This document shows, one piece after another, positions 1,026 through 5,943 of a DNA stretch of 6,300 bases (positions within the stretch are counted from its first letter, which is position 1; each line of letters opens with the position of its first letter). The notes under the pieces are model-generated. The model made no database searches and was not told where the DNA came from. It saw only the letters and a program-made list of their open reading frames with translations. Origin of the DNA: a virus (lineage: Duplodnaviria; Heunggongvirae; Uroviricota; Caudoviricetes); the IMG/VR virus record IMGVR_UViG_648276671_000006, positions 1-6,300 of that record; one strand, written 5' to 3'. The translations under genes were made by a program, and so were the position numbers.

Positions 1026-1181
1026 TTACTCCTCAGGTTCGTAAGCTGTGAAGACAGCGACCTCCGTCTGGCCGGTTCGGATTCGTACCTCGCAGAGGTC
1101 TTTCCTCGTTACCAGTGCCGTCACTATGACGGTTAAACAGATGACGATCAGGGCGATTAACATCGCCTTTTGCTGCTTCAT
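1026..1181 (-). CDS. hok: Hok/Gef-family type I toxin (51 aa, MKQQKAMLIALIVICLTVIVTALVTRKDLCEVRIRTGQTEVAVFTAYEPEE)
   Basis: Single hydrophobic transmembrane segment followed by the conserved RKxLCE.R...GxxEVAAF-like tail of Hok/Gef peptides. From memory it is closest to chromosomal HokD/RelF. ATG at 1181..1179 with AAGGAG 9 nt upstream. The 70-aa track ORF 1026..1238 is an in-frame N-terminal extension. Confidence 0.85.
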   Translation of the reverse strand: MKQQKAMLIALIVICLTVIVTALVTRKDLCEVRIRTGQTEVAVFTAYEPEE

Positions 1182-1227
1182 AGCCTGCTTCTCCTTGACC
1201 TTTCGGTCCGTAAGAGGCAATCTATAT

Positions 1228-1290
1228 GTGACGAGCATATAGGGGCCTCACTTCGATTTATAGTCGGGTGGGGCTTTTCTCTATCTGCCT
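1228..1290 (+). ncRNA. expected position of a Sok-like antisense RNA (approximate, not firmly located)
   Basis: By analogy with hok/sok loci, the antisense RNA should cover the leader-ORF SD (plus 1246..1251) and ATG (1236..1238). Plus-strand signals are weak: TTGACC (1195..1200), 17 nt, CAATCT; possible 3' stem 1245..1251/1268..1274 followed by TTTTCTCT. It may be degenerate. Confidence 0.2.
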
Positions 1291-1315
1291 TTGGTGGCAT
1301 GCCCGAGACAGATAG

Positions 1316-1361
1316 CCTCAAGCACCCGCAGCAATTCTACTTAACTCTCCTTTTCCCGCAA
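1316..1361 (-). promoter_or_regulatory. hok promoter and 5' tac-like box
   Basis: On the minus strand: TTGCGG (1361..1356), 16 nt, TAGAAT (1339..1334). Predicted start near 1328, giving a transcript of about 390 nt whose first 15 nt are complementary to 976..961. Confidence 0.45.
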
Positions 1362-1448: not shown

Positions 1449-1730
1449 TCATCGCAAAACATCCTCCGCGCTTATCAGTTCGTTCCGCTTCAGGTAGTCC
1501 ATCGCCTTCTCCGGTAATTTGCAGTCTGGATTAGCTTTTTTCAGTTGACTGACCAGTCGTTTAACCCACATTGTTAATTCGCCAACTTGGTTACTGGATG
1601 CTAATGGATTGTCGGCTTTACCCAGAATGACAGCACAGCAGGCCTCTTTGAGAACCCAATCAACAGCATCTTTCCATACTCCTGTTTCGACTGGTGGATT
1701 CTCACGCTTTACCTGTTCATAAAAGCGCAC
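1449..1730 (-). CDS. hypothetical protein (93 aa, VRFYEQVKRENPPVETGVWKDAVDWVLKEACCAVILGKADNPLASSNQVGELTMWVKRLVSQLKKANPDCKLPEKAMDYLKRNELISAEDVLR)
   Basis: Protein-like composition. The only start available is GTG at 1730..1728, with no convincing SD; it overlaps the upstream gene by 22 nt, so translation may be coupled. No in-frame ATG before residue 54. Confidence 0.5.
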   Translation of the reverse strand: MRFYEQVKRENPPVETGVWKDAVDWVLKEACCAVILGKADNPLASSNQVGELTMWVKRLVSQLKKANPDCKLPEKAMDYLKRNELISAEDVLR

Positions 1731-1957
1731 GGCTTTAACCAGTCCTTACGCGCCTGCTCCGAAGGAAATATCCCATGCCCCGAACCATATACTGCACCAC
1801 TGACCACCAGCTCTTTCGCCAGAACTTCTATCAGGTGTCTGGTAGCTCCGGTTTCATCTTCCAGTTGCTTACGCGTTTTCCTTCCGTCTCTGCGTACCAG
1901 TTCCACAATACGCGCCTTCAGTTGTTCCCTGTATTCAGGTGTAAAAGCGTTTCCCAT
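1709..1957 (-). CDS. small winged-helix-like protein (82 aa, MGNAFTPEYREQLKARIVELVRRDGRKTRKQLEDETGATRHLIEVLAKELVVSGAVYGSGHGIFPSEQARKDWLKPCAFMNR)
   Basis: Track ORF 1709..2014 begins at a TTG. The ATG at 1957..1955 has GAGG 5 nt upstream, overlapping the stop of the previous gene. Contains a K.T..EL....G.S...V...L...L...G.V motif also found twice in the 256-aa neighbour. Confidence 0.6.
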   Translation of the reverse strand: MGNAFTPEYREQLKARIVELVRRDGRKTRKQLEDETGATRHLIEVLAKELVVSGAVYGSGHGIFPSEQARKDWLKPCAFMNR

Positions 1958-1964
1958 AAACGCC

Positions 1965-2735
1965 TCACTTTTCCGATACAACGCGACTGGTGGAATCGAC
2001 AATCTGTCGAACAATATCCCGGTGCTTGTTCAGCTCCCGTAGCGCGGCGCAGACACGCTCCCACTTCTGGACATGGCTTTTCGCCCGACGCAGTTCACGA
2101 TTTGCCATATGCAGCGATGGTAAAATCAGGTCATCCGCTCGAGTTTCGGTGAACGATGACAACGACTGCACAATGTCCGCCACAGTTTCTGTTTTAATTT
2201 CTTCCTGTATTGCAGCTTCCTGTACAGGTAACGCAACGCCGGCTGGCTGAGGAAAGGCTTTACCATCATTTTCCGTTACCAATGCGACTTTCGGCTTTAC
2301 TGGTAAATTCTCGCCCGGCATGCAGTAGCGAAATTTACCGTTCTGGTTTACGCGTGCCAGCCGCCCCGTTGCGGTTACTACCGCCAGTGTGGAAGCAACC
2401 TTGCGAGTGCTGACACCGAACTTACCCGCCAGTTCCTCACACGTTTTAGCTCCCTCCTGACCGATAAACTCAATCATCATGTCAGCGGTAACTTTTCGTT
2501 CGACCTCCCTGGTTAACACATCTTGTGTTTCAGATTGTGCTGGCTGCTCTTCGGCTCCCCCTGATTCACCTTCGCCAGCCACACGCCAGGTGTATGCACT
2601 TTTATCAACGAAGCCAGCCTTTTTCAGTTCCCACAGCTCCTTCAGCACTTCTTCACGACTGATATCAAGTCGCGTAGTCAGTTCTACCGACGTGGCTTTT
2701 CCCATTGCTTTCAGTGCGTCAAAAACAGTCTCCAT
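1965..2735 (-). CDS. hypothetical protein with two tandem winged-helix-like motifs and a helical C-terminal region (256 aa)
   Basis: ATG at 2735..2733 with GGGAGGA 5 nt upstream; 33-nt gap after the P-like stop. Motifs [32 protein letters not shown] and [33 protein letters not shown]. No Walker A/B or nuclease motifs seen. Confidence 0.8.
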
Positions 2736-2768: not shown

Positions 2769-3434
2769 TCAAACAAAACCAGCCGCTTTCCGGCGTTCAT
2801 ACTCCTGTTTCAGCAACTCAATTGGCGTTGGTCCCGACGGGCGTTTGGGTGCTGCCAGTTGCCGCCGTACGGGCGGAACGCTGAGGCCGTTGCCAACATG
2901 CTTTGCCCATTTCGTCAGCTGCCGTTCTGCAAGCCGTTTTAACTCCCCTTCGGTCATCTGGCATTCAATCCCCTTTGAACGCATCTCGAGGCAAATGTGA
3001 TACAGCACAGGCTGAGACCACGGGTATTTATCGCTTCCGTCGTATCGCCAGGACTCATTGCGCCAGCGTCGGTACTCCTCCATCACGCCATCTACCGTCA
3101 GACCAAATGGATTTGCCCCGCTCTCCGAAATCAGCGCCACAAACTCAGCCAGGTCCGGAGGCCATGTTTCACCCGCCCGGCAGCGGTCCATGCACTGGCG
3201 GCAGACCTGCCGGATTTGCTGCTCAGTCATCGCGCCAATCTGTGCAATCCAGAGCTTCGAAGGTGCGGACCCGTTCTTCTGGGTCCAGCGGTTCGAATAA
3301 ACCTCCCCCATGAGTTCCCACAGCTTCCACGCCGTTTCCGTCGCTGATAAATCCGTTTTCACGTTCCCACTGTTCACGTGCTGCCCGAATTTCCTGAACT
3401 GCCCGTGATGCGGTGCCACCTGGTGCTGCTGCAT
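2769..3434 (-). CDS. replication protein P-like helicase loader
   Basis: The C-terminal two thirds align by eye with lambda P ([18 protein letters not shown] vs ESYPWKSNAHYWLVTNLY; [13 protein letters not shown] vs TDAELRRKAADEL). Start is uncertain: ATG at 3434 has a G-rich SD but overlaps the O-like gene by 212 nt; internal ATGs at 3311 and 3230 (the latter an ATGACTGA overlap with the O-like stop) are alternatives. Confidence 0.7.
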
Positions 3435-4263
3435 GGCTCCCCCCCTTGCTGACTGGTTTAACCTGCGCCCTGACGTGATTTACGTGACGGGCAAATTTCT
3501 GCTCCCACTGAACCTGCGTGAAAACTTTTCCCTCCTCTGCCCAGTAATCCCGGAAGGCGGCAAGTTCAGCAGGTGTAAATTCCGGCTCCGGCAAAGCCAC
3601 TCCCCACAGTGCAGCCCGCCGTCGAAAATCCGGCGACGGATACCAGTCATCGGTCATCGGAAATTTTCCGATGCGTTCGCTCAGGCCATCCAGGAATGCA
3701 GGGGGCGTTGCCTGTGACGGCAAAACTTCCCTCTCACTGGTCGGAGCACTCTCGCGTGCGTTATGTATGGGGTTTAGATCTTTAGGTTCCTTTGGGTTCC
3801 GTGATCCGTTTTTGGGTGTCTTTGATGGAAAATTTGGGTGCCTTTGGTTATTTTCTATGCTGCAAAGAGTCCCGTTTTTGGGTCTGTTTTGTGCGGAAAC
3901 ACAACCGTTTTTGGTGCTGTTTTTATTAACAGTACCAATTTTACCCACCTTTAAAGACTCCCGTTTTTGGGTGTATTCAGGCTCGGCAACACTTTCTTCA
4001 ACACCGATAAGTTGGTACACCACAATTTGCTTTGTTCGACCTTTTCTCTCACCGGTATCAACAATTAACCCAATCTCCATCAGGTGCCGTAAGCTGTCCT
4101 GCACAGTTTTTTTGTTCAGTTCCGTTACTTCTGCCAGTGCAGATACAGACGGGTATGCACACAAATCGGCACCGCACATATCAGCAAGCCAGGTCAATAC
4201 TGACTTACTGGATGAACTGCCGGTTTTCACCCTTTTAGCCCATCGTAGTGCATCGATACTCAT
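3223..4263 (-). CDS. O-like replication initiator: N-terminal HTH domain, PKNG-repeat linker, DnaT-like C-terminal domain
   Basis: Track ORF 3223..4338 starts at TTG. The ATG at 4263..4261 has GAGG 5 nt upstream ([15 protein letters not shown]...). N-terminal region resembles phage replication-initiator HTH domains; [48 protein letters not shown] resembles the DnaT C-terminal domain. Iteron-like repeats lie inside the linker-coding segment. Confidence 0.8.
3783..3976. repeat. iteron-like direct repeats (CCGTTTTTGGGTG family), putative replication origin inside the initiator gene
   Basis: Near-identical copies at 3806..3818, 3872..3884, 3905..3916 and 3961..3973, plus degenerate TTTGGGT(T/G)CC copies at 3791..3800 and 3833..3842. 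An AT-rich stretch lies at 3917..3958. On the coding strand the repeats translate to recurring PKNG. Confidence 0.55.
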
Positions 4264-4786
4264 GCGAACCTCGACCAGGTATCTGTTGACCCGCAAAGCA
4301 ATGTTGGTATTGCTGACGATATGCACGTTTGAAAGCAATAGCTTTTTCTATAAGCTCGTCAGCCTCACGCTCCACAACAGTTGGATCTGCAAAAAGCAGC
4401 CCGGACTCCACCACATCACCATACTCTTTGTTTAACCCGGCGATCATGTACGTAATGCTTTTTCCGTCAGTAATTTCACAATACAACCTGAAATCACTGA
4501 TCCGGATAGCCTCCATAATTGCCGGAATCAGCGCCGTGAATTTTTCACGCTTATCCCTGGTGTCGATAGCTTTCCAGCGTTCAAATATCTTCACCCTGTT
4601 AACGCCAAGCGCCCGCTGATCAACCACGCCATCATCAAATGTGACACGTTGAACATCGATGTTCGGGCGCTCTTTCAGAGCCCAGAAGGCTTCTGTGATT
4701 AATATCGTCGCCTGCTCCTGCGTCATTCCCGGGCTGCATACCCAGGAGTCCAGAGCCTCACGAGCCTGCTCAGGAGTGAATATCAT
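4235..4786 (-). CDS. YdaT-like protein, positional equivalent of lambda CII (183 aa)
   Basis: Sits between the Cro-like gene and the initiator, as cII does in lambda. ATG at 4786..4784 overlaps the Cro-like stop by 17 nt. Assignment to the YdaT family is from memory of prophage YdaS/YdaT pairs, not from a search. Confidence 0.7.
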
Positions 4787-5063
4787 TGTTCACCGCCAGT
4801 GATTCATTTGTCATACACTTATTCCCACAAGGCAGCCCATCGGTTAGATTGGGGTAAATATCTGGGCGAAGCTCGTGGGGGGTGACTTGCCATTCAAGGA
4901 GCACACAAAGAGGAATGACCCGCTCAGCTGGTATTGATTTATTGGCAAACCATTTTCCAACCCCTTGCCCACTAATCCCAAAGCGTTCTCCAATCTCGAC
5001 AAAGGAAAAGTTTTTTTTAATCTTGTCTCGTAGATCGTTTAGTTTTTGATGTTTTTTAGCCAC
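4770..5063 (-). CDS. Cro/YdaS-like HTH regulator (97 aa from the GTG start)
   Basis: HTH FVEIGERFGISGQGVGKWFANKSIPAERV and an ELRPD motif as in YdaS-type Cro proteins. Track ORF 4770..5162 would leave only 11 nt to the divergent repressor. GTG at 5063..5061 has a near-consensus SD GAGGTGAGG (5078..5070). ATG at 5087 is an alternative, possibly leaderless. Confidence 0.7.
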   Translation of the reverse strand: MAKKHQKLNDLRDKIKKNFSFVEIGERFGISGQGVGKWFANKSIPAERVIPLCVLLEWQVTPHELRPDIYPNLTDGLPCGNKCMTNESLAVNNDIHS

Positions 5064-5173
5064 ACAACACCTCACCTCTTGGTTCATCACTGGGAGCATA
5101 ACAGGCGAAAGTTTACGTTTCAAGAACAAGGAAACAAATAGTTGTACTGATAATCGAAACATTTGGTTGTAAA
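5064..5173. promoter_or_regulatory. divergent promoter/operator region of the immunity switch
   Basis: Three operator-like sites about 25 bp apart: GAAAGTTTACGTTTC (5107..5121, palindromic GAAA-N7-TTTC), GAAACAAATAGTTGTAC (5131..5147) and GAAACATTTGGTTGTAA (5156..5172). Leftward promoter TTGAAA (5123..5118), 17 nt, TATGCT (5100..5095). Rightward promoter CTGATA (5147..5152), 17 nt, TAAAAT (5170..5175). Confidence 0.55.
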
Positions 5174-5599
5174 ATGCAGGCTATGAACGATACCGTTAAC
5201 AATGTTTTTGCAAAAAGAATCCAGCAAGTGATGGATGAAAATGGCTGGAATAAGTCAGACCTGGCTAAGCGGGTCATGTTATCTCACACCGCGGTTCAGA
5301 ATTGGGCAAAAGGCATCAGCGTAGCCAGCGGTGTAAGATTAAAAAGGCTCGCAGCTGTAACAGGAAAGCCTGAGTACTGGTTTTTTATGGATCGGGATGC
5401 AGGAGGCGATGAAAATCACCAAGATATACCAATACCCATTGTGCTTGATGACAAAGAGAAAGCCCTGCTCTCAATTTTCAATCAAATGCCAGAAGCAGAA
5501 AAGTTACGCCTAATTATCCATGCTAAGGAAGTCCTGAGAGAGCTGGAACTGCTTAAGAGCGATGTTTTCGATATTATCAACGATCAATTAAAACCATAG
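5174..5599 (+). CDS. DicA-like HTH (XRE-family) prophage repressor, 141 aa
   Basis: N-terminal HTH SDLAKRVMLSHTAVQNWAKG; the C-terminal segment LDDKEKALLSIFNQMPEAEKLRLIIHAKEV resembles the DicA C-terminal region. No peptidase S24 (LexA-like) domain. Divergent from the Cro-like gene. The start may instead be the ATG at 5183, because the -10 TAAAAT overlaps the first ATG. Confidence 0.85.
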   Translation: MQAMNDTVNNVFAKRIQQVMDENGWNKSDLAKRVMLSHTAVQNWAKGISVASGVRLKRLAAVTGKPEYWFFMDRDAGGDENHQDIPIPIVLDDKEKALLSIFNQMPEAEKLRLIIHAKEVLRELELLKSDVFDIINDQLKP

Positions 5600-5624
5600 C
5601 TAACAAACCATCCACACATCAGAC

Positions 5625-5652
5625 AAAAAGCACCTTTCTGGTGCTTTTTTTT
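5625..5652 (+). terminator. rho-independent terminator after the repressor gene
   Basis: AAAAAGCACC-TTTCT-GGTGCTTTTT: perfect 10-bp stem, 5-nt loop, then a T-run to 5652. The A-run before the stem makes it potentially bidirectional. Confidence 0.7.
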
Positions 5653-5661
5653 GCCCAGAAA

Positions 5662-5712
5662 CGAAATTTTCTATTTCGCACACTTTACACGCGAAAGTTA
5701 TTGTTGCACAAT
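5662..5712 (+). promoter_or_regulatory. second operator-bearing promoter (PL-like) for the rightward ydfA-like operon
   Basis: GAAATTTTCTATTTC (5663..5677) is a second GAAA-N7-TTTC palindrome. GAAAGTTATTGTTGCAC (5693..5709) matches 12 of 17 positions of the 5131..5147 site. Candidate promoter TTTACA (5684..5689), 17 nt, CACAAT (5707..5712). Confidence 0.35.
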
Positions 5713-5790: not shown

Positions 5791-5943
5791 ATGGATACTA
5801 TCGATCTTGGCAACAACGAATCTCTGGTGTACGGCGTGTTTCCCAACCAGGACGGCACGTTCACCGCGATGACGTATACCAAAAGCAAAACATTTAAAAC
5901 CGAAGCTGGCGCGCGTCGCTGGTTAGCCAGAAACACTGACTGA
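5791..5943 (+). CDS. YdfA-like small protein (50 aa, MDTIDLGNNESLVYGVFPNQDGTFTAMTYTKSKTFKTEAGARRWLARNTD)
   Basis: Below the ORF-track length cutoff. ATG at 5791 with GAGG 5 nt upstream; stop TGA at 5941..5943. Its position immediately downstream of a DicA-like repressor matches the dicA-ydfA arrangement of the Qin prophage. Sequence identity to YdfA is from uncertain memory. Confidence 0.6.
   Translation: MDTIDLGNNESLVYGVFPNQDGTFTAMTYTKSKTFKTEAGARRWLARNTD

Follow-up and report, generated by a model that had tools for sequence, protein, structure and literature searches.

In phage lambda, the pR operon begins with cro and cII, which diverge from the repressor gene and precede O and P; the spacer between cro and cII carries nutR/tR1. 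The activator CII recognises a direct repeat (TTGC-N6-TTGC) that overlaps cII at its 5′ end, and the C-terminal tail of the protein is disordered. The YdaT protein of CP-933P (141 aa, PDB 8BT1) is a non-toxic activator of PRE933P (PMC8630535). It binds the repeat TTGATT-N6-AATCAA as a tetramer, that is to say, an inverted repeat, unlike the direct repeat of CII, and its C-terminal tail (residues 125–141) is likewise disordered (PMC9986795). The tetramer is built through one long helix per subunit in an antiparallel four-helix bundle, and the box is located at the end of ydaS. The hallmarks of the YdaT family are an unusually long and variable α2–α3 loop (9–23 residues) and a conserved Arg, the DNA-contacting residue in α3 being R60 in CP-933P YdaT and R57 in Rac YdaT (PMC9986795). 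In Rac, the DNase-footprinted YdaT-box is ATGATT-CATGAA-AATCAA, and through it the reverse promoter that drives racR is activated 29-fold (PMC11879457); this promoter lies about 190 bp away inside ydaS.

The view that YdaS and YdaT are regulators has been stated in earlier works (Casjens 2003; Jobling 2018; Jurenas 2021; Prolic-Kalinsek 2023; Wons 2025) and is found in the literature under PMC5917428, PMC8630535, PMC9986795 and PMC11879457. A gene named 'toxin YdaT family protein' is present in 2,512 of 5,426 complete E. coli genomes (about half), and tallying such genes as toxin-antitoxin (TA) modules inflates TA censuses. The features of the present locus, which lies in the window (i.e., the whole stretch of 6,300 nucleotides that was analysed), are as follows.

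2769–3230, minus strand: helicase loader of the lambda P family, 153 aa (Pfam and source-contig gene call)
3223–4263, minus strand: O-like replication initiator, 346 aa, with HTH_36 and a DnaT ssDNA-binding domain
4235–4786, minus strand: open reading frame of the YdaT-like gene (CII analogue), 183 aa
4770–5063, minus strand: Cro/YdaS-like gene, 97 aa, GTG start, HTH at residues ~15–73
4776–4793, given as gene-strand sequence: predicted YdaT-box, an 18-bp 6-N6-6 inverted repeat, GTGAAC-AATGAT-ATTCAC
5095–5123, minus strand: candidate pR for cro-ydaT-O-P, TTGAAA-17-TATGCT with TG, 9/12 in the consensus scan
5131–5171, repressor/cro intergenic region: two 16-nt operator-like direct repeats, GAAACAAATAGTTGTA and GAAACATTTGGTTGTA, 25 bp apart
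5174–5599, plus strand, divergent: CI-analogue repressor, 141 aa, HTH_3, DicA-like, without an S24 peptidase domain

It is highly probable that the early-right operon of a lambdoid prophage immunity region begins with the pair at 4235–5063, which encodes a Cro analogue and a CII analogue acting by the mechanism described below. The first-pass annotation had reported a stop/start-overlapping pair, divergent from the repressor and directly upstream of O and P, and on this the coordinates, Pfam and the source-contig gene calls agree. The Cro-like gene opens the operon that diverges from the repressor, across a repressor/cro gap of 110 bp; its stop shares 17 nt with the start of the ydaT-like gene (4770–4786), which in turn extends 29 nt into the O-like gene, and there is an 8-nt overlap between the O-like and P-like genes. 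The order of a divergent repressor, YdaS, YdaT and the replication genes is conserved in all 10 distinct gene-called related loci. The annotation had also equated the position exactly with that of lambda cro-cII; this holds for the slot, but the detail differs, for there is no intergenic spacer and the ydaT-like gene additionally runs 29 nt into the O-like gene. Because the cro-like and ydaT-like genes overlap by 17 nt, there is no room for an equivalent of nutR/tR1. A search 3′ of the ydaT-like gene found no terminator, and, unlike in lambda, no OOP-like terminator was found antisense to its 3′ end.

The neighbouring genes were assigned by profile. The repressor matches Pfam HTH_3 (E 4.1e-8) and, partially and under the cut-off, the NCBIfam DicA model (E 1.8e-11); CP-933P differs in having a paaA2-parE2 module, which is absent here, where the repressor is DicA-like. 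The O-like gene, present as a gene call on the source contig, matches the Pfam DnaT domain (E 2.9e-18) and a PHROG replication initiation protein (E 3.8e-88), and the P-like gene matches Pfam Phage_lambda_P (E 2.7e-15). The GTG start of the Cro-like gene is preceded by the Shine-Dalgarno sequence GAGGTGAGG, and the source contig carries an independent public gene call with an identical 97-aa product. This product matches Pfam YdaS_toxin (PF15943) at 36.7 bits (cut-off 30) and the transcriptional repressor family PHROG 35 (E 1.7e-16), and its residues 15–73 match the PDB structures of Cro (3bd1, E 5e-3) and XPH1 (5w8y, E 2e-3). NCBIfam gave no model for either the Cro-like or the YdaT-like protein.

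In the YdaT-like protein, residues 59–131 match Pfam YdaT_toxin (PF06254) at 26.2 bits (cut-off 21), and the 183-aa protein matches PHROG 163, 'CII-like transcriptional activator' (E 4.9e-39). A search of the PDB with the single sequence was marginal (E 0.08), while the profile of 32 family members retrieved the YdaT structures 8bt1 (E 4.6e-26) and 3c4r (E 1.2e-24). Identity to characterised YdaTs is only about 25% (about 25–27% to CP-933P YdaT), and there is no match to Pfam Phage_CII at E ≤ 0.01; judged by sequence, the protein is a functional analogue of lambda CII only, without sequence homology to it. For structure prediction by AF2, distant members from an exhaustive HMM search were included, the 11 close homologues alone giving a pLDDT of 51. 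The segments of the protein are as follows.

4466–4786, minus strand: POU-like HTH DNA-binding domain, codons 1–107 (AF2 helices, pLDDT >90)
4397–4456, minus strand: helix, codons 111–130, probable counterpart of the YdaT oligomerisation helix α6
4295–4384, minus strand: added C-terminal helix, codons 135–164, not in YdaT of the Rac/CP-933P type
4238–4303, minus strand: variable tail, codons 162–183, predicted disordered

Five helices are predicted in the HTH domain (5–16, 23–36, 57–73, 77–97 and 99–107). Among them, 57–73 is the predicted recognition helix, bearing N63, R70 and W71, and the α2–α3 loop of the model comprises 20 residues (37–56). R70-W71 align with R60-W61 of CP-933P YdaT (8bt1), and the Arg-Trp pair in α3 is conserved in Rac YdaT as well; among the 32 family sequences, R70 is invariant and W71 is more than 90% conserved.

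The names in the databases (Pfam 'Bacterial toxin ydaT/YdaS', PGAP 'toxin YdaT family protein') would make the pair a genuine type II TA module, with the YdaT-like protein as toxin and the YdaS-like protein as antitoxin, or the reverse. The pair does resemble such modules in consisting of two small overlapping genes of which the first encodes an HTH protein, and over-expressed relatives have been reported as toxic, PMC5700377, PMC5700373 and PMC11879457 describing this for ectopically expressed Rac ydaS/ydaT. However, the presumed toxin has no toxin fold; it is predicted to be a POU-like HTH transcription factor, identical in fold to the DNA-binding YdaT, so that both partners are HTH DNA-binding proteins, and a predicted operator for the second lies at its own start codon. 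Nor do the two genes form an autonomous bicistronic operon, since they run by overlaps into O and P without a terminator, within a replication operon that extends beyond them in the immunity region, and in the loci fetched the pair always occupies the cro/cII slot. CP-933P YdaT showed no TA behaviour (PMC8630535), and Christensen-Dalsgaard 2010, as conveyed by a citing paper, is likewise credited with finding none. For Rac YdaT, PMC11879457 explains the toxicity by off-target activation of rcsA, and over-expressed lambda CII is toxic likewise. Toxicity on over-expression alone lends no support to a TA pair: both lambda CII and Rac YdaT show it, and yet they act as transcription factors (PMC5917428, PMC11879457). 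A genuine TA pair is scarcely credible here. The first-pass annotation had preferred Cro- and CII-type regulators, and the CII-like PHROG match, the synteny in 10 of 10 loci and the predicted operator across the ydaT start bear it out; this view is correct but already published. The main value of the analysis is the correction of an annotation, the 'toxin YdaT' being a CII-type lysogeny regulator. Current understanding is unchallenged, and the locus is a divergent, long-form member of the known YdaT kind.

The predicted YdaT-box straddles the ydaT start, with the ATG at spacer positions 2–4, and sits immediately 3′ of the ribosome-binding site of the ydaT-like gene. It is the sole match in the window to GTGAAY-N6-RTTCAC with zero mismatches; the core TGAW-N8-WTCA was found twice in 6.3 kb (0.52 expected), and the box scores 11.2 bits, where 0.57 sites scoring 10 bits or more are expected per window. 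Such a site is not rare window-wide, so that the weight of the box rests on its position. In 20 of 22 related loci (11 distinct sequences), nTGAnn-N6-nnTCAn lies exactly at −7, and in the remaining two at −33/−36; the placement at −7 holds down to about 23% protein identity and also beside unrelated cro genes. Since part of the box forms codons 2–4, protein constraint or common descent may account for some of this conservation. The arms pair at five of six positions here versus three of six in relatives. The geometry and register are identical to those of the footprinted Rac box, the ATG again occupying spacer positions 2–4, and the half-sites differ, being nTGAAC/GTGAAT here, ATGATT/AATCAA in Rac and TTGATT in CP-933P, where the box lies at the end of ydaS and not on the start codon. 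By analogy with the CP-933P and Rac proteins, the YdaT-like protein would bind this box. As a modest new point, the operator-on-start-codon arrangement described for Rac recurs throughout the family, in 20 of 22 loci.

Two other repeats were rejected as operators. ATGAAC-GATACC-GTTAAC (5183–5200), at the second ATG of the repressor, has two mismatches with about one such match expected by chance, has no TCA core and does not pass the family PWM. CAGGAG/CTCCTG at 28-bp spacing (4715, 4743, 4771) is explained by repeated E-Q-A codons.

The proposed mechanism follows the two characterised systems. When the repressor is absent or inactivated, the candidate promoter in the intergenic region (5123–5095, minus strand) would transcribe cro, ydaT, O and P as one overlapping unit; it is a consensus match and not significant against shuffles. 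The Cro-like HTH protein would then bind intergenic operators and switch off the maintenance promoter of the repressor; the candidates are the repeats at 5131–5171, a pattern matched twice with 0.36 expected, which the repressor or Cro may bind. The YdaT-like protein, contacting DNA through its N-terminal POU-like HTH (helix 57–73, Arg70) and oligomerising through its C-terminal helices, would next occupy the 18-bp inverted repeat over its own start codon and activate a weak plus-strand promoter, whose transcript would run antisense to cro and on into the repressor gene. The raised repressor synthesis would favour the establishment or maintenance of lysogeny. Both the activation of the reverse promoter, in which the locus would resemble Rac, and the oligomeric state are here drawn from CP-933P and Rac YdaT by analogy.

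The standard scan of the plus strand between 4790 and 5100 found no PRE-like promoter. A relaxed scan gave TTCACC-19-TACACT (4789–4819) and TTCCCA-17-TAGATT (4822–4850), with 8/12 each, and the same promoter scan on 12 related loci revealed no conserved position relative to the box, so the repressor-directed promoter, the presumed equivalent of the Rac reverse promoter, is not locatable from sequence. The YdaT-like protein might instead be mainly a negative autoregulator or roadblock on its own SD and start, limiting the read-through from pR into ydaT-O-P and thereby controlling replication. The box over the ATG, immediately downstream of the ribosome-binding site, and the outcome of the promoter scans fit such a role; Rac YdaT also binds the ydaS promoter region (PMC11879457), and the structural paper terms YdaT a 'repressor' (PMC9986795). 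Yet in Rac, binding to the box barely altered ydaT expression and strongly raised that of racR (PMC11879457), and CP-933P YdaT raised the activity of PRE933P (PMC8630535). Autoregulation as the main function is considered unlikely, and the two roles are compatible rather than mutually exclusive.

Alternatively, the genes could be remnants left by a decayed cryptic prophage, without current regulatory function. Truncated or fused copies are common in E. coli, the gene is frameshifted in two of the related loci (L020 and L021), and the C-terminal tail evolves almost freely; the source contig is short as well, and from a contig of 9.3 kb the intactness of a prophage cannot be judged. However, both open reading frames are intact, as are the repressor, O and P genes, and the operator is intact and a better palindrome than in relatives. 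The Cro-like and YdaT-like genes are under purifying selection, with a dN/dS of 0.07–0.12 over codons 1–161 of the latter. Near-identical genes also occur in the viable isolated phages HannyBb, PhiR42_1 and mEp460, and an inactive remnant is very improbable. The cII genes of these three phages (PHROG 163) lie in the same slot, with a dicC-like cro on one side and an O-like gene on the other, and their products share 88–89% protein identity over residues 1–162. They differ in being 173 aa long, with another tail joined to a different O gene, and in having the cro and repressor of another immunity type; their box is TTGAAC-AATGAA-AATCAC.

The length of 183 aa, which the annotation had noticed to exceed that of YdaT, is real, as the 183-aa form is likewise annotated in E. 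coli RM10740 and YdaT has 141 aa. The accompanying guess of an extra domain is only partly right: an extra C-terminal helix exists, but AF2 and the alignment show no separate domain, and the domain and structure prediction that had been suggested for the protein returned the HTH plus the added helix and nothing foreign. The excess consists of this added helix, a tail of about 20 aa and a longer α2–α3 loop. Helix 111–130 probably corresponds to α6 of crystallised YdaT, the single such helix of the short-form Rac protein. Helix 135–164 is predicted by AF2 to fold against it in an antiparallel hairpin, so that the added helix probably turns a single oligomerisation helix into a hairpin. The tail has a pLDDT below 50 at residues 170–182, and its last nine codons or so are shared with the beginning of the O-like gene, whose ATG is at 4263. 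The tail differs from that of RM10740 at 8 of 22 residues, the core at 6 of 161, and relatives of 173 and 165 aa carry other sequences in place of the tail. This weakly constrained tail of about 20 aa probably arose at the mosaic joint with the O gene.

The C-terminal architecture, two helices in a predicted hairpin followed by a tail, is unlike that of the crystallised tetramer, and the stoichiometry and mode of action could therefore differ. A clade of long-form YdaT proteins with the added C-terminal helix and a shifted half-site is the second modest new point, and together with the start-codon operator it offers a natural series for the diversification of specificity and oligomerisation in phage switch proteins. 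Only tentatively can it be suggested that this uncharacterised clade jointly combines a ROP-like hairpin, a shifted operator specificity and a DNA-constrained N-terminus. As to the first, the ROP-like hairpin of the model is proposed to replace the single tetramerising helix; a long-form YdaT could then be a dimer, its two hairpins making one four-helix bundle, on one 18-bp site instead of a DNA-bridging tetramer. As to the third, since the operator is embedded in codons 2–4, it is proposed that the M-x-I-x N-terminus of the family is constrained by DNA recognition and not by protein function. As to the second, the half-site nTGAAC, versus TTGATT, is proposed to co-vary with Val/Ile in place of Gln. 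The position of this substitution is two residues beyond the conserved Asn of the recognition helix.

Read on the minus strand, the window contains a lambdoid immunity/replication region, whose genes, together with conserved prophage genes around it, are as follows.

5063..4770, minus strand: YdaS/Cro-like ORF, 97 aa, GTG start (Pfam YdaS_toxin)
4786..4235, minus strand: YdaT-like ORF, 183 aa (Pfam YdaT_toxin)
4263..3223, minus strand: O-like gene, 346 aa (Pfam DnaT domain and a sub-threshold HTH_36)
3230..2769, minus strand: lambda-P-family gene, 153 aa (Pfam Phage_lambda_P)
5174-5599, plus strand: divergent repressor, 141 aa (Pfam HTH_3)
5791-5943, plus strand: DUF1391 gene (E 3.6e-29), 3′ of the repressor, conserved prophage gene of unknown function
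1965-2735 and 1709-2014, minus strand: DUF1627 (E 8.4e-96) and DUF977 genes, 3′ of P, conserved prophage genes of unknown function

The Cro-like ORF overlaps the ydaT-like ORF by 17 nt, the latter overlaps the O-like gene by 29 nt, and the O-like and lambda-P-family genes overlap by 8 nt; GAGGTGAGG is placed 5-14 nt 5′ of the GTG start. The same genes are found in the public calls for the source contig (NCBI GCA_000176655.2, GL884357.1, 9.3 kb). Against Pfam, the Cro-like protein reaches 36.7 bits for YdaS_toxin (cut-off 30) and the 183-aa protein 26.2 bits for YdaT_toxin (cut-off 21), in residues 59-131 only. That is to say, ORFs, public gene calls and Pfam agree with the coordinates, content and context of the first-pass annotation; the feature is real, its interpretation there was correct, and the second gene encodes a divergent YdaT family member.

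From single-sequence evidence, the YdaT assignment appears thin: a PDB search with the 183-aa protein was marginal (E 0.08), and an NCBIfam search gave no match. In PHROGs, the protein matches phrog_163 at E 4.9e-39, a family named "CII-like transcriptional activator". When 1.84 billion representatives were searched exhaustively with a profile, just 83 proteins reached E <= 1e-3, among them full-length relatives of 143-165 aa down to about 20-30% identity. Positions 2-115 of a 32-member profile match the solved YdaT structures 8bt1 (CP-933P, 141 aa; E 4.6e-26) and 3c4r (E 1.2e-24), which are also the top Foldseek matches (probability 1.0) of the AlphaFold2 model, whose mean pLDDT was 87 with the 32-member alignment versus 51 with 11 sequences. 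In comparison with the hallmarks described for CP-933P YdaT (PMC9986795), the protein has the POU-like HTH domain of five helices, an α2-α3 loop that is very long (20 residues, 37-56) and the recognition-helix Arg as R70, followed by W71; R70 is invariant in the 32 sequences and aligns with R60 of 8bt1. Membership of the YdaT family is thus well supported.

The extra domain suspected in the first-pass annotation is a different matter: the extra length is real, but colinear full-length alignment with the 145-165-aa relatives, Pfam, in which no foreign domain was found, and AlphaFold2 all speak against a separate domain. The excess over the crystallised 141-aa YdaT has three sources, including the loop, which is longer by a few residues, and the tail (162-183), which is predicted to be disordered (pLDDT <50 at residues 170-182). 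Tails are wholly different in relatives, 173-aa proteins ending in ...QQKAGWNYEPSFC and 165-aa proteins in ...RCDQ. Relative to the 94%-identical gene of E. coli RM10740, differences fall at 8 of 22 tail residues and 6 of 161 in the core, and core dN/dS is 0.07-0.12. Since the last tail codons overlap the O-like gene and different types of O gene go with different forms of the tail, the tail appears to be a by-product of mosaic joining to O. CP-933P and Rac YdaT form a four-helix tetramer, whereas the 183-aa protein is modelled with a second C-terminal helix (codons 135-164, after helix 111-130), and its oligomerisation module would therefore not be identical to theirs.

In the Rac prophage, the YdaT footprint is ATGATT-CATGAA-AATCAA, with the ydaT ATG within the spacer (PMC11879457), and the CP-933P target is TTGATT-N6-AATCAA at the ydaS/ydaT junction (PMC9986795). 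A comparable element was predicted in the window.

4776-4793, plus-strand coordinates: predicted YdaT-box, GTGAAC-AATGAT-ATTCAC on the gene strand, a 6-N6-6 inverted repeat

Five of its six arm positions pair, and it shares with the Rac box the TGA/TCA core and an ATG at spacer positions 2-4. GTGAAY-N6-RTTCAC is matched exactly nowhere else in the window; the core TGAW-N8-WTCA has two matches (the box being one) versus 0.52 expected, and a family PWM predicts 0.57 sites per window with 10 bits or more, so such a site is not rare. The significance of the box is its position. Among the start-codon contexts of 22 related loci, nTGAnn-N6-nnTCAn lies exactly at -7 in 20 (11 distinct sequences), whose proteins are down to about 23% identical to the window protein and whose adjoining cro genes are unrelated; the other two have a TTGATT/CTGATT-N6-AATCAG/AATCAA box 33-36 nt upstream. 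DNA homology to the E. coli relatives stops about 10-25 nt before the ydaT ATG, and therefore the box moves with ydaT, not with cro.

The left half-site is always nTGAAC in the window's clade versus yTGATT in the Rac-like clade, and half-site positions 5-6 (TT versus AC/TC) co-vary with Gln versus Val/Ile two residues past the conserved recognition-helix Asn. This is suggestive of a shifted operator specificity, with phylogeny as a confounder. The right operator half coincides with ydaT codons 2-4 (e.g., ATG AAA ATC AAx) in related loci L001-L003, L005-L006 and L008-L023 and in the window (4776-4793). The family N-terminus, M-x-I, is nearly invariant, perhaps because of this embedding. In E. 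coli ECDA1023 (L020) and Shigella flexneri SFBU0723 (L021), the box is intact beside truncated or frameshifted ydaT-like copies (96 and 55 codons before the stop), which are products of cryptic-prophage decay.

The toxin-antitoxin label for YdaS/YdaT originates in a 2007 algorithmic prediction, and such behaviour was not confirmed in direct tests on relatives (PMC8630535). Against a toxin-antitoxin module stand the HTH proteins on both sides of the pair, the fold of the "toxin", which is that of a characterised transcription factor, the embedding in a four-gene overlapping operon and the predicted cognate operator, which together support the first-pass view of a regulator pair, not necessarily a toxin-antitoxin. 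Over-expression toxicity is reported for Rac YdaS/YdaT and lambda CII (PMC11879457, PMC5917428), and this property would not discriminate between the toxin-antitoxin and regulator readings. A genuine type I toxin-antitoxin locus, hok/sok, lies elsewhere in the window (1026-1327).

1026-1238, minus strand: Hok/Gef-family ORF (hok; Pfam PF01848, E 2.9e-23)
1179-1327 (locus 1026-1327, minus strand): sok antisense RNA (Rfam RF01794, 108 bits; gathering score 59)

By homology and context, the pair are the Cro and CII analogues of this prophage, in line with the regulator types first proposed. A promoter scan and repeat analysis gave the following candidates.

5123-5095, minus strand: candidate pR, TTGAAA-17-TATGCT with extended TG
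5147-5175, plus strand: candidate pRM, CTGATA-17-TAAAAT
5131-5171: two operator-like 16-nt direct repeats, GAAACAAATAGTTGTA and GAAACATTTGGTTGTA, 25 bp apart

The 16-mers, which the two candidate promoters flank or overlap, are probably operators; pR would transcribe cro-ydaT-O-P, and pRM would drive the repressor. Because transcription from the candidate pRM -10 (TAAAAT, 5170-5175) would start at about the second in-frame repressor ATG (5183), the repressor mRNA may be leaderless, as in the precedents lambda cI and PaaR2 (PMC8630535). CP-933P YdaT activates the weak promoter PRE933P, directed toward the repressor gene (PMC8630535), and the Rac reverse promoter PracR4 shows 29-fold, box-dependent activation from about 190 bp away (PMC11879457); these experiments on relatives support the proposed CII-like role. 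By analogy, the YdaT-like protein may activate a repressor-directed promoter. Such a promoter was not found in the window, where just two 8/12 matches occur (4789-4819 and 4822-4850), nor was a conserved position for it across 12 related loci.

The regulator reading is already in print (Casjens 2003, as cited in Jobling 2018, PMC5917428; Jurenas 2021, PMC8630535; Prolic-Kalinsek 2023, PMC9986795; Wons 2025, PMC11879457). Modest additions may be that the start-codon operator generalises over the YdaT family, and that there is a long-form clade in which the half-site is shifted and an extra C-terminal helix is predicted. The ydaT-like gene is a common one: of 5,426 complete E. coli genomes, 2,512 carry DNA 80-95% identical to it, labelled "toxin YdaT family protein", and the gene is also present in isolated phages, annotated cII or "CII-like activator". 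The cro/repressor immunity module (~4797-5700) is rare, its best match in the same genomes having about 65% nucleotide identity and a phage-collection megablast giving none. It looks as if a rare, new immunity specificity has been linked to a ydaT-O-P module that is common, and this rarity is ordinary lambdoid mosaicism. In addition, three 89-90%-identical E. coli-type ydaT loci (L017, L018, L019) lie on short contigs in MAGs labelled Collinsella, Bacillota and Veillonella parvula, and are most likely enterobacterial prophage DNA placed there by binning contamination.
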